From: an uncultured Gammaproteobacteria bacterium | Lineage (GTDB): Bacteria; Patescibacteriota; Microgenomatia; Daviesbacterales; UBA10151 | DNA: 64,000 nt | Direction: 5' to 3' | NCBI GenBank assembly: GCA_964500725.1 | Contig: CAZCNP010000004.1 | Span: forward strand, 12,139-76,138 | Shown here: positions 1 to 64,000 of the stretch, one piece after another | Numbering within the stretch: the first letter of the stretch is position 1 | Layout: each line of letters begins with the position of its first letter | Position numbers and translations under genes: made by a program | Notes under the pieces: generated by a model | The model's database searches: none | What the model saw: the letters and a program-made list of their open reading frames with translations, nothing else | Told to the model about the DNA's origin: nothing

Positions 1-642
1 GCCCTACTTTCTTTTCTAAAAATTAAATGGGATTTAAACTTGATAAATAATTTAGCCTATGAAGCAGAAAGAGTTTTCCATGGCAACCCCTCTGGTGGAG
101 ATAACTCAACTGTTGTTTTCGGAGGATTAATTTGGTTTAGAAAAGAAGATCCAAGTTTGAAATTAATTCAACCTTTGCAACTTACTATTCCCACCCAGTT
201 AGCTAAAAATTTTGTCTTAATCAACACAGGAACTCCAAAAGAAACTACTTTAGAAATGGTAACCTTAGTAAAAAATCTTTATAAAAAAAGACCAAATCTA
301 GTTGAAAAGTTCCTGACAAATCAGGAAAGCCTGGTAAGACAATTGTTAAATGTTATTAAAGAATGTAATGAGAAAGAATTTATTAAAATTATTAAAGCTG
401 GTGAACAGAATTTAGAAAGTATTGGTGTAGTTTCTCCTCTAGTTAAACCAATTATTAGAAAAATAGAACAAGCTGGTGGAGCTGCTAAAATCTGTGGGGC
501 TGGAGGCAAAACTGGCCCAACAGGAATACTACTTGCATACCATCAAGACAAAAGTAAATTAGAAAATATAGCCAAATCCTTTAACCTTTCCTTTTTCAGC
601 ACTGCTTTAGGAGTAGAAGGCATTGACAAAATGTACATTTAA
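1..642 (+). CDS. GHMP kinase family protein, C-terminal part (phosphomevalonate kinase-like); 5' end lies outside the window
   Basis: The reading frame is open back to position 1. The C-terminal glycine-rich motif KICGAGGKTGPTG is typical of GHMP kinases. The gene sits immediately upstream of mvk and mvaD. Confidence 0.5.
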   Translation, partial: ALLSFLKIKWDLNLINNLAYEAERVFHGNPSGGDNSTVVFGGLIWFRKEDPSLKLIQPLQLTIPTQLAKNFVLINTGTPKETTLEMVTLVKNLYKKRPNLVEKFLTNQESLVRQLLNVIKECNEKEFIKIIKAGEQNLESIGVVSPLVKPIIRKIEQAGGAAKICGAGGKTGPTGILLAYHQDKSKLENIAKSFNLSFFSTALGVEGIDKMYI

Positions 643-657
643 ATATACAATTAAAAT

Positions 658-921
658 ATGCTGTACATTACTACTACGGAGCTTAGAACTAAATCAAAAA
701 AACTAGTAGAAACTCTCAAGGAAGGTCGTTCTGTAAATTTAGTTCACAGGTCCAAGGTGGTGGGTGAAATTAAACCTAAAATTTATGATCCAAAACCATT
801 TAATGCAAAGAGGGTTTTAAAAATCATTGATAAGCTTAATCTTCCCAAGCTTACTCCCAGACAAATAGAAGCAAGATACAGGGCAGCTATGATGAAAAAA
901 CATGGCAAGAGTCTTTCTTGA
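658..921 (+). CDS. type II antitoxin (Phd/VapB-like)
   Basis: An 87-aa protein whose stop overlaps the start of the downstream PIN toxin. This is the typical antitoxin-toxin arrangement. Confidence 0.55.
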   Translation: MLYITTTELRTKSKKLVETLKEGRSVNLVHRSKVVGEIKPKIYDPKPFNAKRVLKIIDKLNLPKLTPRQIEARYRAAMMKKHGKSLS

Positions 922-1264
922 TACCAATTTTTATATTGATATAACTAAAAGAGCCAAGGAGAAATGGAGCTCTTTAGGGAAAAATTTACTGTTTATATCC
1001 CCTCTATCCACTCATATTCTATTTTATGCCCGCAAGCTAAAAGTTCCTGATCAAGAAATAAATGAACTTCAAGAAGAGTTTGGTATGGTACCCTTCACAA
1101 AATATATCCTTGAGAAAGCTTTAGAAGGTCCAACTAACGATTTAGAAGATAACATCCAGCTTCACTCTGCAGCAGAGGCTGATTGTGATGTCTTTTTAAC
1201 TGCTGATGCTAAACTGCTAAAAATGAGATTCTTTGGCAAGACTGAAATTAAATCTACCCTGTAA
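902..1264 (+). CDS. vapC: PIN-domain toxin VapC
   Basis: The N-terminus reads ARVFLDTNFYID with the conserved acidic residues, and TADAKLL near the C-terminus. The protein is 120 aa. Confidence 0.7.
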   Translation: MARVFLDTNFYIDITKRAKEKWSSLGKNLLFISPLSTHILFYARKLKVPDQEINELQEEFGMVPFTKYILEKALEGPTNDLEDNIQLHSAAEADCDVFLTADAKLLKMRFFGKTEIKSTL

Positions 1265-1316
1265 AATTTGTAATAATTTGCGCTAAAAGTTATAATTACC
1301 CTCAATGCCCAACTAA

Positions 1317-1703
1317 ATGAATAGGATTGAAGCTTCTGTAGAAAGATTCAAAAGCATCGCCAGGCTTACTGCAAACTCGCTAGTAGAGCCTCTGAGAAGT
1401 TCTGTTGTTTTATTTCATCTCGCTGGTTTAAAGACAGCTACTTATCCTTGGGTTCTACCAATTTCTGCCTCAGCAATTAGTTTTGCATTAACAAAGAATA
1501 CTACTCTATCTTTAGCACTTGGTGGTGGAGTATATATAGCAGAAGGCTTTGCTATAACAGCAGCAAATGAAGCTATCTTCAATAGAGCATCTTGTAAAAC
1601 TGTACAAATGAGGCAAGGAGCAAAAACAATAAGCCCCGAAGAACTGGCCAAACTTCTCACAGATGATAGCAAACCTAATAATGAAACTTATGAAGATCCA
1701 TAA
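1317..1703 (+). CDS. hypothetical protein
   Basis: A 128-aa ORF in the gap before mvk with no recognisable motif. Confidence 0.3.
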   Translation: MNRIEASVERFKSIARLTANSLVEPLRSSVVLFHLAGLKTATYPWVLPISASAISFALTKNTTLSLALGGGVYIAEGFAITAANEAIFNRASCKTVQMRQGAKTISPEELAKLLTDDSKPNNETYEDP

Positions 1704-1748
1704 AAGCATGTCTTTACAATTATTCAAAAGAAGGTAAAATCTTATAAG

Positions 1749-2738
1749 ATGAACAAGGTTACAGTTTCAGCACCAGGAAAATTAATGCTTTTGGGAGAAC
1801 ATGCTGTTGTGTATGGACAGCCATGCCTGGTAACTGCTGTGGGACAAAGAATGAAAGCAACAGTAGAGCTAACTGAGGAGGCTACTTTTCAGCTTGAAGC
1901 TCCTGATGTTAAAATTGAAGGCTACAGCAAGCCTATGTCCCAATTAGCCCAGGGTGATATTCCCAAAGGAGCAAAATTTGTAGAAATTGCTGTTAAAAAT
2001 TTTTCTGAAAAACACCCAATTGAAGGTGGTGTAAAGGTTAACACAGTCTCTGAATTTTCTTCTCAATTTGGATTTGGCTCCTCCTCTGCTTCTACTGTTT
2101 GTGTTATTAAAGCTCTCTCAGAAATTACTGGAGCAAATCTAGATAACAAATCAATTTTTGAATTGGCTTTTAAAACTGTGATAGATATTCAAGGCAAAGG
2201 CTCTGGATTTGATGTAGCTGCAGCTACATATGGAGGAACTCTATATTTTGTCATAGGAGGAAAAGTAATAGAACCTCTTCATATTGGCTCACTTCCCTTA
2301 ATTGTAGGTTATACAGGCATTAAATTTGATACTGTAGCTTTGATAAATGAAGTAGCCAAAAAGGCAGTAAAGTATCCTGAAGTTATAGATAATATTTATC
2401 AACAAATAGGAAGGTTGGTAGAAAAAGCTAAACAAACAGTATTGAACAAAGATTGGGCTACTTTAGGAGAGCTCATGGACTTTAACGAAGGTTACCTTGC
2501 TTCCCTAGGAGTAGAAAGTAATAAACTGGCTGCCATGATTTATGGAGCCAGAGAGGCTGGAGCTTATGGGAGTAAACTATCTGGAGCAGGTATTGGAGAT
2601 TGTATGATTTCCCTAGCTTCAGAAGATAGAACCCAAGCTGTTAAAGATGGAATAACTGCTGCCGATGGCCAAGTAATTGATATTGAAGCCAATGTAGAAG
2701 GAGTAAGAATCGAACATGGCGTCAAAGGAATGATTTAA
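1749..2738 (+). CDS. mvk: mevalonate kinase
   Basis: The N-terminal motif APGKLMLLGEHAVVYG is the mevalonate kinase signature. It also carries the GHMP motif GFGSSSAS and the C-terminal SKLSGAGIGDC. Confidence 0.85.
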   Translation: MNKVTVSAPGKLMLLGEHAVVYGQPCLVTAVGQRMKATVELTEEATFQLEAPDVKIEGYSKPMSQLAQGDIPKGAKFVEIAVKNFSEKHPIEGGVKVNTVSEFSSQFGFGSSSASTVCVIKALSEITGANLDNKSIFELAFKTVIDIQGKGSGFDVAAATYGGTLYFVIGGKVIEPLHIGSLPLIVGYTGIKFDTVALINEVAKKAVKYPEVIDNIYQQIGRLVEKAKQTVLNKDWATLGELMDFNEGYLASLGVESNKLAAMIYGAREAGAYGSKLSGAGIGDCMISLASEDRTQAVKDGITAADGQVIDIEANVEGVRIEHGVKGMI

Positions 2739-3154
2739 GGTAGCGTTTTGATGCCTACTTTTTTGAAATCTGAATCCAAACTGATAATGGAATCTATATT
2801 AAACCTTTTCATTAAAACTATAGTGGTAGCATCTGTTAGAGACAATTTATGCTCTGCGAACTTTTCTAAAGTTTCAAAAGCTTCAGCTTGAACCTGTTCA
2901 TCGACCCAAAGTTGGACTAAATTATTTTTTGCGATGCTATCTTTTATTAGATTGATAAACTGCTCTGTTATTTTGATATTAGTATCATAAATAAATCTGG
3001 TGACTGTTTCATCTATGACATCGTTTGAGGTACAAATTACTACACCATCTTTAATAAATCGTTTGATTAGGTTCTTAATATTTATATGTCTGGGTTGATC
3101 TGATCCTAAATATGAAATCCATGCTGAAGTATCCACAAAAATCTTACTGGCCAT
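2735..3154 (-). CDS. vapC: PIN-domain toxin VapC
   Basis: The N-terminus reads KIFVDTSAWISY and there is a C-terminal SLDSDF motif. The protein is 139 aa. Confidence 0.8.
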   Translation of the reverse strand: MASKIFVDTSAWISYLGSDQPRHINIKNLIKRFIKDGVVICTSNDVIDETVTRFIYDTNIKITEQFINLIKDSIAKNNLVQLWVDEQVQAEAFETLEKFAEHKLSLTDATTIVLMKRFNIDSIISLDSDFKKVGIKTLP

Positions 3155-3157
3155 GAG

Positions 3158-3409
3158 TTAATCTTTTAAATAAATTTCATCAATATTTTCAGCAATATTT
3201 TTACCAAACTTCGCGAAACCAGCCATCTTTAATAAAGGATTATTCTTAGCTCTGGTTTTGGCAAGCGCTTTAAGTAATTTAGAATATTGATCAGAGACTC
3301 TCTCTACAACATCCCTGATTATTTGTGAGCGGGACATACCAAGTTCTTTGGCCAAATCAGCCAGGGTGGAAACTGTATTGGGTTTTAAGTAAATCTGATA
3401 TCTTTGCAT
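3158..3409 (-). CDS. ribbon-helix-helix (CopG/VapB-type) antitoxin
   Basis: An 83-aa protein immediately upstream of the PIN gene on the same strand. The N-terminus YQIYLKPNTVSTLADLAKELGMSRSQIIRDVV looks like an RHH fold. Confidence 0.55.
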   Translation of the reverse strand: MQRYQIYLKPNTVSTLADLAKELGMSRSQIIRDVVERVSDQYSKLLKALAKTRAKNNPLLKMAGFAKFGKNIAENIDEIYLKD

Positions 3410-3473
3410 ATATACACCATATCATGAGTGGTGTATATTGTCAAGAGCCATAAGTTGAGCTATCATTGATCAC

Positions 3474-4454
3474 ATGAAAGCAACAGCCATTGGACCATCA
3501 GATATAGCACTAACCAAATACTGGGGCAGAAAAGATGAGGTCTTAAGACTACCTGAGAATGGTTCTATTTCCATGGTTTTAAGCAATCTTTTAACCACCA
3601 CCACAGTAGAGTTTTCCCCAGAATATAAAAAAGACCAAATTACTATAAATGGTGGAGGCTTGGAAGAGGGAGAAGCAGAAAGGGTTATTAAACATTTGGA
3701 CAGAATCAGAAAAATAGCCAAAATTGACTTAAAAGCTAAAGTAGTTTCCAAAAACAACTTTCCTATTGGCACAGGCCTGTCTTCTTCTGCTTCTGGCTTT
3801 GCTGCTTTAACTGTAGCTGCAAGCAGCGCAGCAGGTTTAAATTTATCAGAAAAAGAGTTATCAATTCTTTCTAGACAGGCCTCTGGATCCTCTTGTCGGC
3901 CTATTGCTGGGGGTTTTGTAGAGTGGCTGGATGGAAATACTTCCAATACTTCTTATGCCAAAACAATATTCCCTAAAAACTGGTGGAATATTGCAGATGT
4001 TGTAGCTGTTGTTTCTGAAGGCAGAAAAGAAGTACCTACTTCCACAGGTCATGCAAAAGCTCAATCCTCTCCTTTTCTAAAACTTAGGTTATCCAGAATG
4101 AAAGAAAAAAATAGATTAGTTAAAAAATATATTAAAGAAAGGGACTTTAAAGCTTTGGGAGAGTTAATAGAACAAGAAGCTTTAGAGCTGCATACCATCA
4201 TGCTAACCCAATACCCTCCTTTAATTTATTGGACTCCTGGAACTTTAACTATTATGAAATTAGTCTCACACTGGAGAGCAGAAGGAATTCCAGTTTACTT
4301 TACTATCAATACTGGTCAAAATATTCATCTTTTAACAGAGCAAAAAAATGTAGAAAAAGTTAAAGACAAACTTAAAAAGTTAGATTTTGTCAAAAATATT
4401 ATAGTAAATACTGCAGGCGAAGGAACCAGACTTTCTAAAGAACATTTATTTTAA
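3474..4454 (+). CDS. mvaD: diphosphomevalonate decarboxylase
   Basis: The motif IALTKYWGRKD matches the mevalonate decarboxylase consensus (IALIKYWGKRD-type). It carries the GHMP motif GLSSSASGFAAL and is 326 aa. Confidence 0.85.
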   Translation: MKATAIGPSDIALTKYWGRKDEVLRLPENGSISMVLSNLLTTTTVEFSPEYKKDQITINGGGLEEGEAERVIKHLDRIRKIAKIDLKAKVVSKNNFPIGTGLSSSASGFAALTVAASSAAGLNLSEKELSILSRQASGSSCRPIAGGFVEWLDGNTSNTSYAKTIFPKNWWNIADVVAVVSEGRKEVPTSTGHAKAQSSPFLKLRLSRMKEKNRLVKKYIKERDFKALGELIEQEALELHTIMLTQYPPLIYWTPGTLTIMKLVSHWRAEGIPVYFTINTGQNIHLLTEQKNVEKVKDKLKKLDFVKNIIVNTAGEGTRLSKEHLF

Positions 4455-4459
4455 GGTTA

Positions 4460-4700
4460 ATCTATAAAGCTATCAACACTAGGGAATCTTATCCTGCTTA
4501 GTAAACTTGCTCTTTCTATAGGGTCAGGCACATTTAAGAGGACAGGCTGCTGATCACCTGTCCTGGTAGAACGGAGAACACTAGCTCCTGAAACTACCTC
4601 CACTGTAGGCTCCTCACGGGATACTACCGCTTGGTCGTCACGAACTATCCTAAACTGTCCTTCACCTAGACTTTCTGTGCGTATTCCCATAGGTGTAAGA
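4460..4700. ncRNA. candidate structured non-coding RNA (unclassified); GC-rich island in a convergent intergenic gap
   Basis: GC content is locally much higher than the flanking sequence. There is an 8-bp hairpin aggacagg/cctgtcct plus several smaller hairpins. The 5' end (cactagggaat) and the 3' end (attcccatag) can pair into a closing helix. Confidence 0.3.
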
Positions 4701-4732
4701 AATGTACCTATATCAGGAATACTAAATTCCGC

Positions 4733-5254
4733 TTATCTTGTCAATAACTCAGCTGCTTCTCGTGCCCAAGGAGTATAATTTTGGGGGTTTTTGGCAATAT
4801 CTGCTAAAAAATCTCCTCTTTTTATCCATTTATACTCATAGCCTATATTTTGATCCAAATTAACTCCTCCATCATACTCACCAACTATAAGGTAACAGTG
4901 CTCATTCTCGCAAAGCTTCCCATATTGGGCAAAATAATTAAATACTCCCACTCTTTTTAAATTCTCAACTTTATCAATTTCCCATTCTTCTTGCAAGCAT
5001 CTTAAAGTTGCCTCTTCTATAGTCTCATCTGAACTATCAGACTTATGCAGAGGATGGGTAGCAGCTGTTAAATCCCAAATATTATCAAATATTTTATGTT
5101 TTCTTTTTTGCAGCAGCACTTCTCCTTTAGAATTATACAGAAGCGCAGCGATTGCCAGATGACGCTGACCTTTCCCTGTATGCCCTTTTTCTTTAAGAAT
5201 ATATTCTAAAAACTTTCCATTATCATCACAAGCTAAAATTATTTGTTTATTCAT
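4733..5254 (-). CDS. idi: probable isopentenyl-diphosphate delta-isomerase (type 1, Nudix family)
   Basis: A Nudix-box-like segment ETIEEATLRCLQEEWEI is present, with a conserved His/Cys/Glu pattern. The gene is next to the mevalonate genes. Confidence 0.55.
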   Translation of the reverse strand: MNKQIILACDDNGKFLEYILKEKGHTGKGQRHLAIAALLYNSKGEVLLQKRKHKIFDNIWDLTAATHPLHKSDSSDETIEEATLRCLQEEWEIDKVENLKRVGVFNYFAQYGKLCENEHCYLIVGEYDGGVNLDQNIGYEYKWIKRGDFLADIAKNPQNYTPWAREAAELLTR

Positions 5255-45718: not shown

Positions 45719-47563
45719 CTACTTCTTTTTTCCTACTATTTTTTCAAACTCATCAGATTCCAGGGTCTCTTTCTCTAGAAGTTGCTTGGCAACAGCATCA
45801 AGCTTTGTTTTATATTTTCTGAGTAAAGCTTGGGCTTGAGAATAACCCGCATCCATAATCTTTTTTATCTCTGCATCTACTGCGTCATGCATTTTTGGAG
45901 ACATCTCTCCTCCCTCATCCATCCCTCTCCATATCCCAAACATTGGCCTTGGGTTTATACTAAGAGGGCCTAAAGAGGACATTCCATATTGAGTTACCAT
46001 TGCTCTGGCAATATTGGTCGCAACTTCGATATCAGAAGCTGCTCCGGTAGAAATATCTTTAAATATTAAGTTTTCAGCTGCCTGCCCACCTAAGGCAGCA
46101 GTAATTTGCTCCACCAAACGGGATTTGCTTTCGTTTGACCTATCCTCTGTGGGAGGGAATAATGTGTGTCCCCCAGACATACCTCTGGAAACAATAGAAA
46201 TACGGTGGACTGGATCAACATTTTTCAAAAAGTGGCCAACAACAGCATGCCCTGCCTCATGGTAAGCTGCCAATTTTCTATCACGCTCAGACTGCATCCT
46301 CTTTCTTTGTGGACCTAATTTTTCCTTTGTTGCAGCTTCTTCCAAATCTTTATTATCTATGGCAGTTTTACCTTCCCTGGCTGCTAAAATTGCTGCCTCA
46401 TTTAGCATATTAGCCAAATCTGCTCCGGAAAACCCTACAGTTCTTCTGGCTAGTTTTTCAGTTGAAACTTCTTTGGTAAAAGGTTTACCCTTCATATGCA
46501 GTTCAATAATGGCTTTTCTTTCCTGCAAATCAGGCAAAGACAGCATCACTCGCCTGTCAAAACGCCCTGGCCTTATCAACGCTGCATCTAGCAAATCTGG
46601 CCTATTCGTAGCAGCAATAATAATCACCCGATCATTAGGAGTAAACCCGTCCATTTCCACTAAAATCTGATTTAAGGTTTGCTCTCTTTCATCATGTCCT
46701 CCAGAAATTCCCATACCTCTTTGTCTACCAATTGATTCAATCTCATCCACAAAAATAATAGCTGGGGCTGCCTTTTTGGCCTGGGCAAACATATCCCTAA
46801 CCCTAGCTGCTCCAACTCCAACTAACATTTCCATAAACTCTGACCCTGCTATAGAGAAAAATGGCACTCCAGCCTCCCCTGCTATTGCGCGCGCCAATAA
46901 AGTCTTTCCAACACCCGCCGGACCAACTAAAAGCACTCCTCTTGGGATTCTGGCTCCTAAAGCCTTAAATTTATCTGGGGTTTTAAGAAATTCCACTATC
47001 TCAGAAAGCTCTTTTTTGGCTTCTTCTGCTCCTGCTACATCTGTAAACTTGATTTGTGGCTGGTCTTTAGTAAACAACCTGGCTCTGCTTTGGGCAAAGG
47101 AAAAAATACCCTGGGCTCCTTCCCTGGCATTCCTAAAAAGCAAAAACATCAGTCCCACCAGTATCAAAATTGGCAAAACTGCTGATAAAATCCCAATCCA
47201 AGCCTGCTGTAAAGACAGGTCTTTCACTTCAATAGTCACAGTTTTGGGATCTACCCCTGAGGATTCCAATATTTTATAAATTGATTCTCCAGCTTCTTTA
47301 CGAGATATAAGCTTTTGATCAGAACCTTTTACCTCAGCTGTAATTTTATCCCCTTCTAAAGAGATCTTTTGGACTTTTCCTTCTTTGACATCAGAAACTA
47401 TTTGAGAAATAGGAACTTCATTGCTTAAAGAGGTGGAAGGACTCCCTGAAACTTGGTAGAAGAAAATCAAGGCAGCCACAGCAATTAGGATATAAACAAT
47501 CAAGCCCTTAAAAATGGAAAAGAATTTTTTATTTAGGTTAATTTTCCTCTTGCCATTTGCCAT
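45719..47563 (-). CDS. ftsH: ATP-dependent zinc metalloprotease FtsH
   Basis: A transmembrane N-terminus is followed by the AAA Walker [24 protein letters not shown], an SRH region and the zinc motif HEAGHAVV. Confidence 0.95.
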
Positions 47564-47603: not shown

Positions 47604-47924
47604 CTACCGGATTTTTGATCCTGGAGGAACTTTTTGGGATGGTTTTAGGAAAATAGGTTTGTTGTTATCTGCGCACAAAATCATCCCTTGAGACTCTAAA
47701 CCCATCATCATCCTTGGTTCTAAATTAGCTACCACAACCGCTTGTTTGCCTTTCAAATCTTCGCTCTTATACCATTGTTTTATGCCTGCCAGAATCTGTC
47801 TAGGTTGTTCTTCCCCTAAATCCACCTTTAGTTTAATTAGTTTCTCAGATCCTTCTATATCCTCTGCCTCCAGAACAGTACCAACTTTTAATTCAACCTT
47901 GGCAAAGTCTTCTATTGCAATCAT
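47604..47924 (-). CDS. tRNA-binding domain protein (CsaA / EMAP-II-like)
   Basis: The segment FAKVELKVGTVLEAE is typical of the OB-fold tRNA-binding domain. Confidence 0.7.
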   Translation of the reverse strand: MIAIEDFAKVELKVGTVLEAEDIEGSEKLIKLKVDLGEEQPRQILAGIKQWYKSEDLKGKQAVVVANLEPRMMMGLESQGMILCADNNKPIFLKPSQKVPPGSKIR

Positions 47925-48274
47925 AGTTGCTCCAACCCTAATACTAATTTCACTGCTTCTTCCACTTCTTGCAGCTTACTTTTGGAGATCTGCCCAATCT
48001 TTTTAATTAAACGATCCTGATCAATACTTCTAATAAGTACTGGCACTAAAACAGAGTGCTCATCAAAACCTCTTGGTTTGCCTAAATCTATGATCTCGGA
48101 AGTATAAGAAACAGGCACTATTGAACTACTCGGTATAACAATTACATGATATGTACCTTGATTAACGCTGTTATCCGAAATTATTAGAGCAGGTCGTTTT
48201 TTATGAATTTCCCTACCAAATGCAGGCTCTAAATTAACTACCCAAAATTCCCCTCTTGTAATTAGTTTGGCCAT
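47921..48274 (-). CDS. mazF: MazF/PemK-family endoribonuclease toxin
   Basis: The segment RGEFWVVNLEPAFGREIHKKRPALIIS is MazF/PemK-like. Confidence 0.8.
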   Translation of the reverse strand: MAKLITRGEFWVVNLEPAFGREIHKKRPALIISDNSVNQGTYHVIVIPSSSIVPVSYTSEIIDLGKPRGFDEHSVLVPVLIRSIDQDRLIKKIGQISKSKLQEVEEAVKLVLGLEQL

Positions 48275-48492
48275 CCTTCAATCTCAGTAGCTTTCCACTC
48301 TTCAGCAATTTTTTTATAAAAGTCTCTATTAATTTTTAAACTTTTAATAAGCTCTTTTTTAAGATTTCTCTTGGGTAACTTTTCTCTAACAGCATTTGCT
48401 ATAAACTTGCTTCTTTTTTTAGCAGGAATAGCCCTTTTCAGGTCTCTAGCCAATTCATATGGTAAAGTAATATTTAATCTTTGAGCTTGCAT
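48262..48492 (-). CDS. antitoxin (RHH/MazE-like) of the MazF pair
   Basis: A 76-aa protein whose N-terminus NITLPYELARDLKRAIP looks RHH-like. It overlaps the mazF start. Confidence 0.5.
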   Translation of the reverse strand: MQAQRLNITLPYELARDLKRAIPAKKRSKFIANAVREKLPKRNLKKELIKSLKINRDFYKKIAEEWKATEIEGWPN

Positions 48493-48528
48493 AATTCACC
48501 CTCCTTAATACACACTAATTATACACAC

Positions 48529-49524
48529 TTATTTAAAGTAGTCAAGTTTCATGGCCTTTTTAACTTCAGCCAAAGTCTTTTGGGCTTCTGCCCGGGCTTT
48601 GTCAGTTCCCTCTTTTAATATCTTTTCTACCAATTCTGGCTGGGTTTCATATTCAGCTCTCTTTTTTCTAATTGGATCCAAGAAATTATTTAAAACTTGG
48701 ACTAGATATTTTTTTACCTCAATATCCCCTACTTGGCCCCTTGAGTAAAGTAGTTTGTAGTTCGTAGTTTGTAGTTGGTCGCTCTCAGACCCAAAAGCAT
48801 CAAGATATATAAAAACAGGGTTTCCCTCTACATGTCCTGGGTCTGTAGCTTTTATTCTAGTAGGGTCTGTATACATACTCATCACTTTTTTTTCTACTTC
48901 CTCAGTTGAATCAGTTAAAAAAATGGCATTATTTAAAGATTTTCCCATTTTAGCTTGGCCATCTATACCTGGTAAAGTTGGCACCTCCCCTATCAAAGGT
49001 TCAGGGATAGGAAAAACTTCTCCATAAGTGCTATTAAACTTAATGGCAATATCCCTAGCATATTCCACATGAGCTTTTTGGTCTTTTCCTACAGGCACTA
49101 GATTAGCCCGAGGAAGCAAAATATCTGCAGCCATTAAAACTGGGTAATAAAATAAACCCACAGTATCTTCAGACCCTTGGTCTAATTTTTCCTTTAAAGC
49201 AGGCTGCCTGGCAATCAAAGCTCTAGGGGTTAAAACACTTAAAAAATAAGCCAGCTCTAACACTTCTGGAACTTGGGATTGGATAAAAAAGGTAACTTTA
49301 TTAGGATCTAACCCCACAGATAAATACCCTAACATCAATCCTTTAATATTTTCTTCCAGCTGATCTGCTTTATTAAAATGAGTAGTCAGAGCATGGAGAT
49401 CTACCAAGGGTATAAACATTTCATACTCATCTTGCAGTTTAACCCTATTTTTTAAAGAACCAATGTAATTACCCAGATGAAAACTATCATTGGTAGGCCT
49501 ATCCCCTGTTAAAATCCGTTTCAT
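48529..49524 (-). CDS. trpS: tryptophan--tRNA ligase
   Basis: A class I HIGH-like signature TGDRPTNDSFHLGNYIG is present, with the KMGKS-like KMGKSLNNA. It contains an in-frame heptamer-repeat insertion. Confidence 0.95.
   Translation of the reverse strand: MKRILTGDRPTNDSFHLGNYIGSLKNRVKLQDEYEMFIPLVDLHALTTHFNKADQLEENIKGLMLGYLSVGLDPNKVTFFIQSQVPEVLELAYFLSVLTPRALIARQPALKEKLDQGSEDTVGLFYYPVLMAADILLPRANLVPVGKDQKAHVEYARDIAIKFNSTYGEVFPIPEPLIGEVPTLPGIDGQAKMGKSLNNAIFLTDSTEEVEKKVMSMYTDPTRIKATDPGHVEGNPVFIYLDAFGSESDQLQTTNYKLLYSRGQVGDIEVKKYLVQVLNNFLDPIRKKRAEYETQPELVEKILKEGTDKARAEAQKTLAEVKKAMKLDYFK
48749..48780. repeat. tandem heptamer repeat (AGTTNGT)x4 inside trpS, in frame
   Basis: The sequence is agtagtttgtagttcgtagtttgtagttggtc. 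A 23-mer is identical to GT4 gene positions 34216-34238. It encodes the segment ...QLQTTNYKLLYS.... Confidence 0.8.
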
Positions 49525-57699: not shown

Positions 57700-57772
57700 T
57701 ACCAGGGGTGGGGTGCGCGCCCACGACCGCCGGGATATGAATCCGGTGCTCTACTAGCTGAGCTACCCTGGC
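57700..57772 (-). tRNA. tRNA(CAU) (elongator Met-like) with a non-canonical T-loop
   Basis: A 73-nt cloverleaf forms on the minus strand. The acceptor is GCCAGGG/CCCTGGT, the D-arm GCTC-AGCTAGTA-GAGC and the anticodon arm CCGGA-TTCATAT-CCCGG. The T-arm is GTGGG-CGCGCAC-CCCAC, which lacks T54, psi55 and A58, and the D-loop has A18 instead of G18. Confidence 0.5.
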
Positions 57773-59463: not shown

Positions 59464-59535
59464 CGCGGGGAAGTGTAACGGCTGCACACAAGGCTCATAA
59501 TCTTGAGGCAGTAGGTTCAACTCCTACCCCCGCAA
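59464..59535 (+). tRNA. tRNA-Met (CAU), initiator-like (C1xA72 mismatch)
   Basis: A 72-nt cloverleaf with acceptor CGCGGGG...CCCCGCA and A73, the same ends as bacterial tRNA-fMet. The anticodon loop is CTCATAA and the T-loop TTCAACT. Confidence 0.75.
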
Positions 59536-59548
59536 CACAATTTAGTCC

Positions 59549-60484: not shown

Positions 60485-61384
60485 TTGACATCTATAACCT
60501 ATAACATTATAATATGTATTATGATTACTCTACGCGATGCACACCAGCAATTCATTGGACACCTTAAAGGCAAATCCAGAGCCTCAGCTACTATCTTAGC
60601 TTATGGCAAAGACATTGATCAACTGGTAAGCTATTTACAAGACTTGGGCAAAACAGATCCAAAAAGTGTAACAACTGAGGATTTAGTAGCTTTTATGCAA
60701 AAGTTGAGCAAAGAAGACTACACCCCAAAATCAATCTCTAGAAAAACTAACTCTACTAAAACCTTCTTCAAATATTTAAAAACATCAAACATTATTGATG
60801 CTGACCCAGCCACTAACTTAGAACACCCAAAATTTGAAAATAAACCCCCTAGGATTTTAACCAAATTAGAATACCGCAGTCTGCGCGATGCAGCCAGAGC
60901 AGATACTAGAATGATAGCAGTTATAGAATTGCTTTTACAAACTGGCATTAGAATTGGAGAACTTGCCAAACTCAGGGTTGAGGATATTGATTTGGAAAAC
61001 CTCACACTTCATGTTCCCCTATTTGAAGACACCAGAGAAAGAACTATCCCATTAAATAAATCAGCAGCTGAAGCCATTAAAAATTACCTTCCCAAAAGAG
61101 CAAAAACTCCAAATCATGCCCTTTTTGTCACCAAAACTGGCAGACCTTTACTTATTAGAAATATCAGAACTGCCATTGATAGATACTTTAGGGTAGCTGG
61201 TATTAAAGGAGCTAAAGTTAATGATTTAAGACACACTTGGGTAGCTTTTCAATTACAAGCAGGTGTTCCTATGACTATGGTTTCAAAACTTGCAGGTCAC
61301 AAAAGACTCTCCACCACTGAAAAATACCTTCAATTTATCCAGGGACAAACAGTTGAAGGTAAAGTCAAATTAGAAGAGCTTTAA
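60485..61384 (+). CDS. tyrosine recombinase (XerC/XerD-like, phage-integrase family)
   Basis: The catalytic region reads LRHTWVAFQLQAGVPMTMVSKLAGHKRLSTTEKYLQ, with R, H..R and Y. An N-terminal SAM-like domain is present. Confidence 0.85.
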   Translation: MTSITYNIIICIMITLRDAHQQFIGHLKGKSRASATILAYGKDIDQLVSYLQDLGKTDPKSVTTEDLVAFMQKLSKEDYTPKSISRKTNSTKTFFKYLKTSNIIDADPATNLEHPKFENKPPRILTKLEYRSLRDAARADTRMIAVIELLLQTGIRIGELAKLRVEDIDLENLTLHVPLFEDTRERTIPLNKSAAEAIKNYLPKRAKTPNHALFVTKTGRPLLIRNIRTAIDRYFRVAGIKGAKVNDLRHTWVAFQLQAGVPMTMVSKLAGHKRLSTTEKYLQFIQGQTVEGKVKLEEL

Positions 61385-61681
61385 ATTCTTGCCAGCAGCC
61401 TTTAGCGATATTCCTATTAGGTACATTATATATAGCAGAATAAGGCTTAATCCAAAAGTCATTATAGATACTATTAGATACTGAGTCATCTCATTATGTT
61501 GATAAAAACCAGCTGCTGTTCCTATCCAAACACTAATCATAAATGGAAACAGAGGAATAAATGCTAACCATAAAATAAGGTCTGAAGAGATTATCCATAA
61601 CAGAAAAAATAGGATAAAACAAAAAAGAGTCCATAATCCAGCTAGTAAGAGAAGTATACGGAACGAGAGAGGTTTATTCAT
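61370..61681 (-). CDS. hypothetical membrane protein
   Basis: A 103-aa protein with three predicted transmembrane helices. Confidence 0.4.
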   Translation of the reverse strand: MNKPLSFRILLLLAGLWTLFCFILFFLLWIISSDLILWLAFIPLFPFMISVWIGTAAGFYQHNEMTQYLIVSIMTFGLSLILLYIMYLIGISLKAAGKNLKLF

Positions 61682-61700: not shown

Positions 61701-61774
61701 TGGTAGGCCCGGAAGGAATCGAACCCTCGTCTTGACTGTATAAGAATCAGGTATTACCATTATACGACGGGCCT
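61701..61774 (-). tRNA. tRNA-Ile (UAU)
   Basis: A 74-nt cloverleaf with encoded CCA. The acceptor is AGGCCCG/CGGGCCT with A73, the D-arm GTAT-AATGGTA-ATAC, the anticodon arm TGATT-CTTATAC-AGTCA (anticodon TAT) and the T-arm GAGGG-TTCGATT-CCTTC. Confidence 0.6.
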
Positions 61775-61805: not shown

Positions 61806-63983
61806 CTACAACTGGGCTCTTGAGGCTACCTCTGCTTCTACTTGGGTCACATCTTTGCCAAACTTTAACCTAGATAACTCTCTGATTGCCTGGCCTATTT
61901 GAGGATTTAACATTGCTTGCCATTTTTTCATATCTTTGGTGGTATCCAGTGAAAATGGCACCACTGGTTCACCATGAACAATAGTTTTAATATAAGCATG
62001 AGGAGATTCTATATTTACCAAATCAGCCTCAGTAAAAGTGGGGGAAAATTCATGCTGCAGGTAATTGGCATCAGTAACTCCCACTCTAAAGCCAATTACT
62101 GTACCCACATTACCAAAAACAGCATTTTTTAAATCCTCCCCAATTTGGCCAATAAATTGGTTAGCCACAGTTAAATTAAGTCTATATTTTCTAGCCTCAG
62201 ATAAAATATCTGCAAAAGTATCTGTGGCAAAATTTTGGAACTCGTCAACATACAAATAAAAATCTCTTCTTTTTTCCATATCCATATCCGATCGGGACAT
62301 GGCTGCTTGCAAAATTTTGGGGACCAAAATTAATCCCAGGAAGTTGGAATTTTCCTCCCCTATTCTTCCCTTTGATAAATTCATAATCAAAATTTTACCC
62401 TCATCCATAACTTGTCTTAAGTTAAAAGCAGACTTTGATTGACCAATAATATTTCTCATCATCCTATTGGTAACAAAACGGCCAAACTTGGAAACTGTGT
62501 AGTCCAACACTTCTGATTTATGAAAATCTGTAGTTTGGGCAATTTGATCTGTCCAATAACGCCTAACCACTGGATCAGAAACTTTTGGCAGCAATTCTCT
62601 GACAAAATTAGCATCAGTCATCAGCCTAACCACTTCAACAAAAGTAGCTCCAGGGCTGCTCATTGCAGTCAACATCGCATTTCTGACCCCATGCTCAAAA
62701 CGGGGACCAATAATACCTGTTTTATTAGGATCAAACAGCTTATACATCAAACCAATAATAGAGGCTACCACAAAATGTTTTTGCTCCTCAGTGTAGGATT
62801 CAAGCATGTTTAAACCAAAAGGCCTACTCATATCTGAAGGGTCAAAATAAATAACATCTTCAGATCTGTGGGAAGGAATAAGCTGCAGCAACTCCTCTGC
62901 TGCATCCCCATGTGGGTCAATAAAACACAATCCTTTTCCTGCTAAAATATCCTGCAGCATTAAACTTTTCAAAAGCTCTGATTTACCAGTTCCTGTTCTA
63001 CCAATAATATACATATGCCTGCGCCTATCATCCTCTGATAAATAGACAGGTCTTTCAACACCTCGAAAAACTGATTTACCTAAATAAAGACCAGAGGTAG
63101 GAATTTTTTCCGGGGCTGGAGCCCTTTTGGAAGAAAGCCAGCTGATATAGGGTGTTTCTACGGACTTATTTGGAAGATGCAAAATCGAAGCAAGCTCATC
63201 TGCTGTTAAAACCGAAACCTTACTATACCTTGGCATATATCGGTAAATAAAATCAGTTAAAAATCCCTTTTCAGAATAAACCTTTGCCCCAGAGAAAGAA
63301 TTGTAGGGACCGCTAAATTGTTCAAAAGCTGCTTTGATATTAGTAAGATGCGCCTTGGCAGATTCAGCTGAAGTGCTTGAAGTCACAATCCTGATACTAG
63401 TTTCAAAGCCTGCCTTAGAGAGTTTTCCTTCCACTGCTTCGAGCTGTTTTGCATCTGGTGGGGCTTTAGGATTTTTCTCATCTCCTGGGTCTTTTTCTTT
63501 TTTCAGCCACTTTTTACCAATATCTTTCCAAGTGCTATCAGCTGGAGAAATCATCATCTGAATAGCTGCGCCTTCGTTTACCTGCATTTTGGCCAAAGCT
63601 GAGGTAACAGCAGAAAGAGGGTCTGTAGGCAAGTCTCTAAAAGTTTTAATTGGAAAATGATCAGCGCCTTTTAACTTTAGTTGGGCATAAGCTGTTTCTC
63701 CTACTTCAGAAAAAATATTATATTCAGGAACTTCTTTAATTTCTGCATCAGGGTATGCTCCATGAATTTGTTTTTCTACTAAATCTTGATGCGCTCTATG
63801 ACAGGATATAAAAAACCTTATAGACTCATGCAAGGCCACAATCTCAAAAGATAAATGGGGCTGTGGAGTAAACATAGACAACATCCCCCCAGATTTTCTT
63901 AAGGAGGCAAAGGTGGCAAAAAGTTGTTCAGCAGCATCAATTTTGATTTCATTTCCGCGCGGGACTTTTATCTGCAGAAGCAC
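61806..63983 (-). CDS. HerA/FtsK-like P-loop ATPase (DUF87-type; T4SS coupling-protein/VirD4-like family)
   Basis: The Walker A region MYIIGRTGTGKSELLKSL is followed by CFIDPHGD and the Walker B FYLYVDEFQNF. An N-terminal domain of about 330 aa precedes them. Confidence 0.5.
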   Translation of the reverse strand: MLLQIKVPRGNEIKIDAAEQLFATFASLRKSGGMLSMFTPQPHLSFEIVALHESIRFFISCHRAHQDLVEKQIHGAYPDAEIKEVPEYNIFSEVGETAYAQLKLKGADHFPIKTFRDLPTDPLSAVTSALAKMQVNEGAAIQMMISPADSTWKDIGKKWLKKEKDPGDEKNPKAPPDAKQLEAVEGKLSKAGFETSIRIVTSSTSAESAKAHLTNIKAAFEQFSGPYNSFSGAKVYSEKGFLTDFIYRYMPRYSKVSVLTADELASILHLPNKSVETPYISWLSSKRAPAPEKIPTSGLYLGKSVFRGVERPVYLSEDDRRRHMYIIGRTGTGKSELLKSLMLQDILAGKGLCFIDPHGDAAEELLQLIPSHRSEDVIYFDPSDMSRPFGLNMLESYTEEQKHFVVASIIGLMYKLFDPNKTGIIGPRFEHGVRNAMLTAMSSPGATFVEVVRLMTDANFVRELLPKVSDPVVRRYWTDQIAQTTDFHKSEVLDYTVSKFGRFVTNRMMRNIIGQSKSAFNLRQVMDEGKILIMNLSKGRIGEENSNFLGLILVPKILQAAMSRSDMDMEKRRDFYLYVDEFQNFATDTFADILSEARKYRLNLTVANQFIGQIGEDLKNAVFGNVGTVIGFRVGVTDANYLQHEFSPTFTEADLVNIESPHAYIKTIVHGEPVVPFSLDTTKDMKKWQAMLNPQIGQAIRELSRLKFGKDVTQVEAEVASRAQL

Positions 63984-64000
63984 AAACTGTAGAGATTCTT

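Follow-up and report, generated by a model that had tools for sequence, protein, structure and literature searches.

A tRNA-Ile gene with a DNA-encoded UAU anticodon at a conserved chromosomal locus of Daviesbacteria, and its bearing on AUA decoding

Introduction

How is the isoleucine codon AUA read in a bacterium whose minor tRNA-Ile gene has the anticodon UAU written in its DNA? Bacterial AUA decoding is the textbook case of dependence on one essential modification enzyme, TilS, which is near-universal, and the few species that depart from it have been regarded as curiosities. Nine species without tilS were found to carry a TAT gene, and 371 unique TAT tDNAs of unknown origin had been counted in metagenomes by 2013 (PMC3575796). 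The tRNA-Ile3(UAU) forms a class of its own in tRNAscan-SE 2.0, with 17 surveyed bacterial genomes (PMC8450103), TAT tRNA-Ile genes are held for 19 species in tRNADB-CE (PMC4013482), and a 2026 preprint speaks of UAU as "rare cases" (10.64898/2026.02.03.703510). In a literature search that combined CPR/Patescibacteria with lysidine or TilS, no paper linking a UAU tRNA-Ile to the CPR was found.

The gene described here was noticed in a sequence-only reading of a 64,000-nt stretch of DNA, hereafter the window. Exact protein matches lead from the window to contig JACQIW010000017.1 (83,370 bp) of the MAG GCA_016198315.1, which is entered as a Candidatus Daviesbacteria bacterium (CPR/Patescibacteria, Microgenomates). 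Its structure, its conservation across Daviesbacteria, the origin of U34 and the case for and against TilS in this lineage are considered in turn.

Structure of the tRNA-Ile(UAU) Gene

The gene was called by ARAGORN as a tRNA-Ile(tat) at exactly 61701-61774 of the minus strand, and the Rfam model RF00005 matches 61704-61774(-) over its full length with 58.7 bits, the gathering threshold being 29; for a search of the 64-kb window this corresponds to E 4e-10. The features of the gene are as follows.

61701..61774, minus strand: tRNA-Ile(UAU) gene, 74 nt including the 3' CCA (ARAGORN, Rfam RF00005, synteny and covariation)
61738..61744, minus strand: anticodon loop C32-U33-U34-A35-U36-A37-C38 (sequence and Rfam alignment)
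61740-61742, minus strand: anticodon UAU (ARAGORN and Rfam)
61701..61703, minus strand: DNA-encoded CCA end, with the discriminator A73 at 61704 (sequence)

In the RNA sense the gene reads AGGCCCGUCGUAUAAUGGUAAUACCUGAUUCUUAUACAGUCAAGACGAGGGUUCGAUUCCUUCCGGGCCUACCA. The coordinates, the loop CTTATAC and the UAU anticodon given by the sequence-only reading are correct, ARAGORN and Rfam agreeing on them, and the minus strand, which that reading left unstated, can be added. The encoded CCA that it had noticed is present in the sequence, and the well-formed cloverleaf that it described is borne out by the RF00005 score together with compensatory changes across orthologues.

The stems of the molecule comprise 7 bp (acceptor), 4 bp (D) and 5 bp (anticodon), and the variable loop has 4 nt. 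The D loop is short (7 nt, AAUGGUA), and the T arm is canonical (GAGGG-UUCGAUU-CCUUC). Because the minimum free energy fold of the single sequence is not the cloverleaf (z = -1.4), the structural support comes from the covariance model and from the comparison of orthologues, only a minority of which encode the CCA. No promoter or terminator consensus was found in the sequence adjoining the gene.

A Conserved Locus in Daviesbacteria

The tRNA gene lies between two protein genes that served as anchors of synteny.

61806..64000, minus strand, running past the window end: ATPase resembling type IV secretion system (T4SS) coupling proteins (DUF8128/DUF87; Pfam), 782 aa in full
60521..61384, plus strand: Xer-type tyrosine recombinase, convergent with the tRNA gene (Pfam Phage_integrase, 6.7e-31)

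The ATPase gene, annotated at source as a 'type IV secretory system conjugative DNA transfer family protein', ends with its stop codon 31 nt upstream of the tRNA gene. A hydrophobic ORF of 103 aa (61370-61681, minus strand) starts 19 nt downstream of the tRNA; it is probably spurious, since Pfam gives no match, the NCBI annotation omits it and the syntenic loci contain no homologue.

Related genes were collected by two scans. The genome scan, in which each GTDB species was represented by one genome and the pattern consisted of the anticodon loop and the T loop, returned 14 loci; in 12 of them the sequence flanking the tRNA, left and right, matches the window at 68-80% DNA identity. The records of these 12 bear the names Daviesbacteria, 'Patescibacteria group' or 'uncultured Gammaproteobacteria'. 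In the metagenome scan the pattern prescribed the T loop and the 3' strand of the acceptor stem but allowed any base at position 34, and it returned at least 80 loci; the 80 matches listed comprise 64 with UAU, 10 with CAU and 6 with GAU. Synteny was then established by tblastn with the neighbouring proteins of the window. A UAU tRNA occupies the same slot in the 12 genome loci and in at least 45 metagenome loci (at least 57 in total), in the order T4SS-coupling-like ATPase, tRNA, Xer-type recombinase, DivIC and, usually, tRNA-fMet. Identity of the ATPase ranges from 70.5 to 91.2%, and some of the syntenic contigs, of 0.74 Mb (JAQUSJ010000001.1, 743,708 bp) and 1.02 Mb (Ga0209514_10000005, 1,023,025 bp), are main chromosomes. 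U34 is found at every syntenic locus, even though position 34 was open in the metagenome pattern, and none of the CAU and GAU matches listed is syntenic with the window.

Judged from these loci, the UAU gene is fixed throughout the Daviesbacteria clade, at one chromosomal spot. In a search for homologues of the ATPase, the matches listed, at least 120, are all at least 73% identical and include no sister lineage. On first reading the gene had been called rare and likened to known ones. The likeness stands, as it resembles the genes of Mycoplasma mobile, Bifidobacterium and Neorickettsia (PMC3575796, PMC8450103). The rarity holds for cultured and complete genomes (the nine species without tilS, and 17-19 genomes with TAT) but not for Daviesbacteria, with at least 57 syntenic loci, nor for metagenomes, with 64 of the 80 matches listed. 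What is added here is one CPR lineage in which the gene is universal, its locus fixed and its natural variation rich; the mechanism itself is not new.

Eight TPA 'binchicken' MAGs (L004-L006 and L010-L014) titled 'uncultured Gammaproteobacteria bacterium' are syntenic with the window at 70-80% DNA identity, and the label 'Gammaproteobacteria' of these MAGs is evidently wrong.

Covariation Among Orthologues

The covariation set comprised at least 36 distinct tRNA sequences from the syntenic loci. The 36 distinct orthologues compared show no change in the acceptor stem, in the UAU anticodon or in the rest of loop positions 32-37, and most of them have C38. Their D arm and anticodon stem vary widely between sub-lineages. 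Despite this variation, standard pairs fill 99.7% of the 756 cells of the cloverleaf in the 36 sequences. Changes on both sides were found at 11 of the 21 pairs, including all four pairs of the D stem and all five of the anticodon stem. None of 500 shuffles reached the observed pairing, and no slid register came close to it. The pairs of the D stem and the anticodon stem were unconstrained by the search patterns; the T loop and the 3' acceptor strand were fixed by them, and conservation there is partly by construction. Covariation of this kind beneath an invariant anticodon points to a functional tRNA under purifying selection. On this comparative evidence a pseudogene or a chance match is excluded.

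The tRNA Body and the Probable Origin of U34

The acceptor stem begins with the pairs A1-U72, G2-C71, G3-C70, C4-G69 and C5-G68, and the molecule has A73 and A37. Together with A73 this stem resembles that of E. coli tRNA-Ile, and it contains C4-G69/C5-G68, the pairs used by E. coli TilS. The Ile identity elements of E. coli are A73, C4-G69, an A37/A38-type loop, U12-A23 and C29-G41. At the last two places the window copy has A12-U23 and A29-U41 instead; U12-A23 is found in other orthologues.

Two kinds of tRNA gene that came up with the same search pattern, Ile2-type CAU (loop CUCAUAA) and Ile(GAU), have the identical acceptor stem and likewise a short D loop and a variable loop of 4 nt. When 250 distinct tRNAs were compared with the anticodon masked, the closest ones other than UAU all proved to be Ile(GAU) or Ile2-type CAU. 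This ranking is partly circular, because its top members were chosen by the search pattern.

A natural exchange at position 34 can be seen outside the locus. Some contigs of high GC content (52-67%) carry tandem arrays of 10-22 tRNA genes, among them four arrays with the order Ile(GAU), Lys(UUU), X, Lys(CUU), Thr(CGU).

L095, 3988-4381: X is a CAU tRNA
L042, 8753-9199: X is a UAU tRNA
L057, 1003-1319: X is a UAU tRNA
L070, 1624-2024: X is a UAU tRNA

The first array is collinear with the other three at 83-86% nucleotide identity, and the tRNA in the slot is otherwise near-identical. Therefore, a switch between C34 and U34 in an Ile2-type gene does occur naturally. UAU tRNAs are also found in phage-like tRNA arrays. 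A low-GC CAU tRNA that has 24 nt in common with the UAU genes of Daviesbacteria (L053/L063/L094) lies on phage-like soil contigs, outside Daviesbacteria.

Since its body matches tRNA-Ile2(CAU)-type genes, the gene of Daviesbacteria most likely arose by a C34-to-U34 transition in an ancestral Ile2 gene and would have been fixed before the radiation of the clade.

AUA Codon Usage and Genomic Setting

The window uses the standard genetic code. Of its 1471 Ile codons, 422 (29%) are AUA, which gives this codon an overall frequency of 22.9 per 1000. These measurements agree with the earlier remark that the gene fits an AT-rich, AUA-heavy genome. Such use of AUA is expected at 36% GC and by itself is silent on the route by which the codon is decoded. 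The window is densely coded and of uniform GC content, and its genes are those of an ordinary chromosome: mevalonate-pathway genes, Pth, CarAB, ATCase, dihydroorotase, an ATP-dependent DNA ligase, RecF, Fpg, PolA, a class I aldolase, FtsH, TrpRS and many toxin-antitoxin pairs. The mevalonate-pathway cluster stands at the left end (40-5254) and consists of GHMP kinases, diphosphomevalonate decarboxylase and a NUDIX/IPP-isomerase-like gene, with PIN-type toxin genes interspersed.

TilS and IleRS

The window, the 5.7 kb that adjoin it on the right and some 0.6 Mb of related loci contain neither a PP-loop motif nor a tblastn match to TilS; the queries were the TilS proteins of PDB entries 1WY5, 3A2K and 1NI5, and they returned noise only (E >= 0.7). 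The ileS gene is likewise absent from the window, from the roughly 70 kb of the contig and from the related loci examined.

In many bacteria tilS adjoins hpt and ftsH. The window, like relatives whose FtsH is as little as 78% identical, has TrpRS, a tRNA-binding-domain protein and ftsH in that order, and no tilS stands beside ftsH. An unannotated ORF of 468 aa near ftsH was considered as a TilS and rejected, as it encodes no PP-loop protein. The cluster of TrpRS, tRNA-binding-domain protein and ftsH is conserved in the window (47604-49524, minus strand), L019 and L020, the second member being a stand-alone PF01588 protein of 106 aa. The FtsH of the window (45719-47563) has 614 aa; five other FtsH proteins of Daviesbacteria (P0022, P0044, P0077, P0095 and P0099) have about 1040-1070 aa and are interrupted by inteins, with intein/LAGLIDADG domains (PF14890, PF14528).

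TilS-like PP-loop proteins are encoded by 41 contigs of IMG/VR (L101-L141), many of the proteins being truncated, at about 200 aa, and many of the contigs phage-sized. One contig (L101, encoding P0241), of up to 570 kb and 36% GC, carries the cellular genes PurN, TyrRS and cation efflux; it probably belongs to a cell with a small genome and was filed among the viruses by mistake. A protein search seeded with P0241, the most CPR-like TilS of the set, led to a small clade and then to Bacteroidota and Halanaerobium; from this seed no CPR sequence was reached.

The sequence-only reading took the gene to imply that TilS is not needed. The gene does not establish this by itself, as UAU tRNAs stand alongside tilS in L. 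plantarum and L. casei (PMC3575796) and alongside an Ile2-like CAU gene in locus L016. On balance we lean slightly towards a loss of TilS in Daviesbacteria. This estimate is based on genome reduction, on the long-term fixation of UAU and on the lack of an Ile2-like gene in the regions covered.

Other CAU tRNAs Near the Gene

Two further tRNA genes of the window, both less than 4 kb from the UAU gene, bear on the presence of an Ile2.

59464..59536, plus strand: initiator-type tRNA(CAU) with a C1xA72 mismatch (ARAGORN; Rfam 52.8 bits, the 1-72 pair flagged as non-standard)
57700..57772, minus strand: elongator-Met-like tRNA(CAU) (Rfam 51.1 bits; missed by ARAGORN)

Orthologues of the initiator occur in the syntenic loci. 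The elongator-Met-like tRNA is not Ile2-like, having A4-U69 and G5-C68. The CAU tRNAs of the related loci are either initiators or elongator-Met-like types beginning GGCAGCG... or GCCAGGG..., both of the latter with A4-U69/G5-C68. No Ile2-like CAU tRNA, that is, one with an Ile-type acceptor, was found in the roughly 70 kb of the contig or in the at least 57 syntenic loci, which cover a few kb per genome. There is also none among the listed matches of the position-34-free scan that can be assigned to Daviesbacteria. The set of tRNAs near the gene, seen over a few kb per genome, thus fits a complement of fMet, Met and Ile(UAU) that would do without Ile2.

Both neighbours have peculiarities of their own. 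The elongator-Met-like tRNA (AGCUAGUA) has the T loop CGCGCAC, not UUCRANY, and a D loop without G18. This T loop is kept in four genomes (the window, L011 825-900, L051 ~6018 and L061 ~4990) with a compensatory change in the T stem; L027 has the same tRNA but with a canonical T loop. In bacterial initiators, three consecutive G-C pairs in the anticodon stem are canonical and A11-U24 is usual. The initiator of the window (59464-59536, plus strand) has the anticodon stem CAAGG/UCUUG and U11-A24, and the D arm is more canonical in the relatives L004, L041 and L045. In another relative among the Daviesbacteria (L013, 1181-1440), a group I intron (Rfam 73 bits) interrupts the initiator tRNA within its anticodon loop (..GGCUCA / intron / UAAUCUG..). 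A group I intron is also known in cyanobacterial tRNA-fMet genes, and that of L013 is similar.

Proposed Explanation and Its Rivals

The explanation proposed is a functional, vertically inherited chromosomal minor tRNA-Ile gene, its UAU anticodon encoded in DNA, which would read AUA; as a reading of the comparative data we consider it very probable. The transcript would be processed, with CCA added post-transcriptionally in most relatives, would be charged by IleRS and would read AUA through a U34-A pair. It may further be the main or only decoder of AUA, in which case lysidine and TilS would be dispensable in the clade, a step for which we put the chances a little above even. The misreading of AUG would then be limited by IleRS and/or the ribosome, or by a modification of U34, as in Mycoplasma mobile.

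Two other explanations deny that this is a core tRNA-Ile gene. The gene might be non-functional or misassigned: a pseudogene, a tRNA-like fold arisen by chance, or a tRNA whose true identity is different, such as a mutated Met or Lys tRNA with its anticodon wrongly called. The short D loop, the pairs A12-U23 and A29-U41 that depart from E. coli tRNA-Ile, and the single-sequence fold other than a cloverleaf could be read in this way. The 58.7 bits over the full-length model, the identical placement of the anticodon by ARAGORN and Infernal, the acceptor stem and A73 common to Ile(GAU) and Ile2-type genes, and the strong covariation around an invariant anticodon loop all speak against it. The full-length score, the covariation and the invariant loop refute the pseudogene, and we regard this whole explanation as the least credible of those considered. 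Alternatively, the tRNA might be the att site or the cargo of an integrative/conjugative element, given that a Phage_integrase-family recombinase (60521-61384) and a TraG/TrwB-like ATPase (61806-64000) flank it and that UAU tRNAs occur in phage-like arrays. Yet at least 57 loci keep the gene order, with proteins 70-91% identical, and core genes adjoin it to the left and to the right (DivIC, tRNA-fMet, NTP transferase / signal peptidase, SodN and a thioredoxin-reductase-like gene), no direct repeat of the tRNA 3' end is present within 9 kb, the scan found no viral contig with the tRNA (0 matches), and the GC content is uniform. The conserved synteny, the missing repeat, the uniform GC and the empty viral scan largely refute an att site or an ICE, and an origin as a mobile-element feature is very unlikely.

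A more serious rival accepts the tRNA as functional and makes it redundant: TilS and a tRNA-Ile2(CAU) would be encoded elsewhere in the genome, and AUA would be read by both LAU and UAU anticodons. Coexistence of this kind has a parallel in a Phycisphaerales MAG (JBIKJV010000341.1; L016 5047-5240), where an unrelated tRNA-Ile(UAU) lies 45 nt from an Ile2-like CAU tRNA. The latter looks much like E. coli tRNA-Ile2, and the pair suggests that both AUA decoders coexist in this planctomycete. In addition, L. plantarum and L. casei have a TAT gene alongside tilS, and such a state has been called an 'intermediate stage' (Taniguchi et al. 2013, PMC3575796). The stretch inspected, about 70 kb, is part of a genome of roughly 0.7-1.1 Mb, which leaves room for both genes. 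Redundancy is, however, less expected in a reduced CPR genome and in a clade where UAU is fixed across deep divergence, and tilS is missing beside ftsH, where it commonly stands. The at least 57 loci and the listed matches assignable to the clade hold no Ile2-like CAU gene. We hold redundancy to be a real possibility, though one that falls somewhat short of even chances.

The strongest form of the proposal goes further: the whole Daviesbacteria clade, with its dozens of species-level lineages, may have abandoned lysidine and TilS and may read its frequent AUA codons (about 23 per 1000) solely with the U34 tRNA-Ile. To this we give no better and no worse than an even chance. Were it true, either a lineage-wide adaptation of IleRS and the ribosome or a new modification of U34 would be needed to stop AUG from being read as Ile, and no other natural bacterial clade that decodes AUA independently of TilS would come near Daviesbacteria in size.

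As far as the UAU tRNA itself is concerned, what counts as an exception elsewhere is general in one whole lineage of the CPR that has been well sampled. With at least 36 natural variants and near-complete genomes, the questions raised by M. mobile become testable by comparative genomics: how IleRS accepts U34, how misreading of AUG is avoided, and in which order tilS and tRNA-Ile2 were lost. For annotation and estimates of completeness, it should be borne in mind that a Daviesbacteria genome without Ile2(CAU), and possibly one without the TilS marker, may still be complete.

Comparison With Known Systems

The closest likeness is to the tRNA-Ile2(UAU) of M. mobile (Taniguchi et al. 2013, PMC3575796). 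Both genes have T34-A35-T36, an Ile2-like body, A37 and A73, both stand in AT-rich, reduced genomes that use AUA freely, and the lysidine-free reading of AUA in M. mobile is presumed for Daviesbacteria as well. While M. mobile is a single species, Daviesbacteria are a whole, deeply diverged clade of another phylum (CPR/Patescibacteria), and their loop is usually CUUAUAC, with C38. The absence of tilS, an IleRS adaptation of the Arg865 type (the position of W905 in E. coli), an unmodified U34 and the rejection of AUG by the ribosome have been demonstrated for M. mobile. An IleRS2 of eukaryotic type would be another form of adaptation to U34.

With the canonical tRNA-Ile2(CAU)/TilS system, the gene has in common its role as an AUA-specific minor Ile tRNA, its body type and the acceptor AGGCCCG/CGGGCCU-A73. 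It differs in having T34, not C34, in the window and in all syntenic orthologues listed; therefore, it is no substrate for TilS, and no switch of identity from Met to Ile is needed.

That a U34 tRNA-Ile decodes AUA is known from the TAT genes of L. plantarum and L. casei, which also have tilS (PMC3575796), and from the GAU-to-UAU suppressor of B. subtilis without tilS (PMC3919564). The suppressor was derived in the laboratory from tRNA-Ile1(GAU), whereas the gene of Daviesbacteria, with its Ile2-type body, is fixed and ancient. The tRNA-Ile(UAU) of Nanoarchaeum equitans and of Korarchaeum, which are without TiaS (PMC8450103, PMC3919564), belongs to another domain and to the loss of another enzyme (TiaS/agmatidine), and there a UAU gene stands in for CAU together with its C34-modifying enzyme in ultra-small or reduced lineages, a solution to which that of Daviesbacteria would be convergent.
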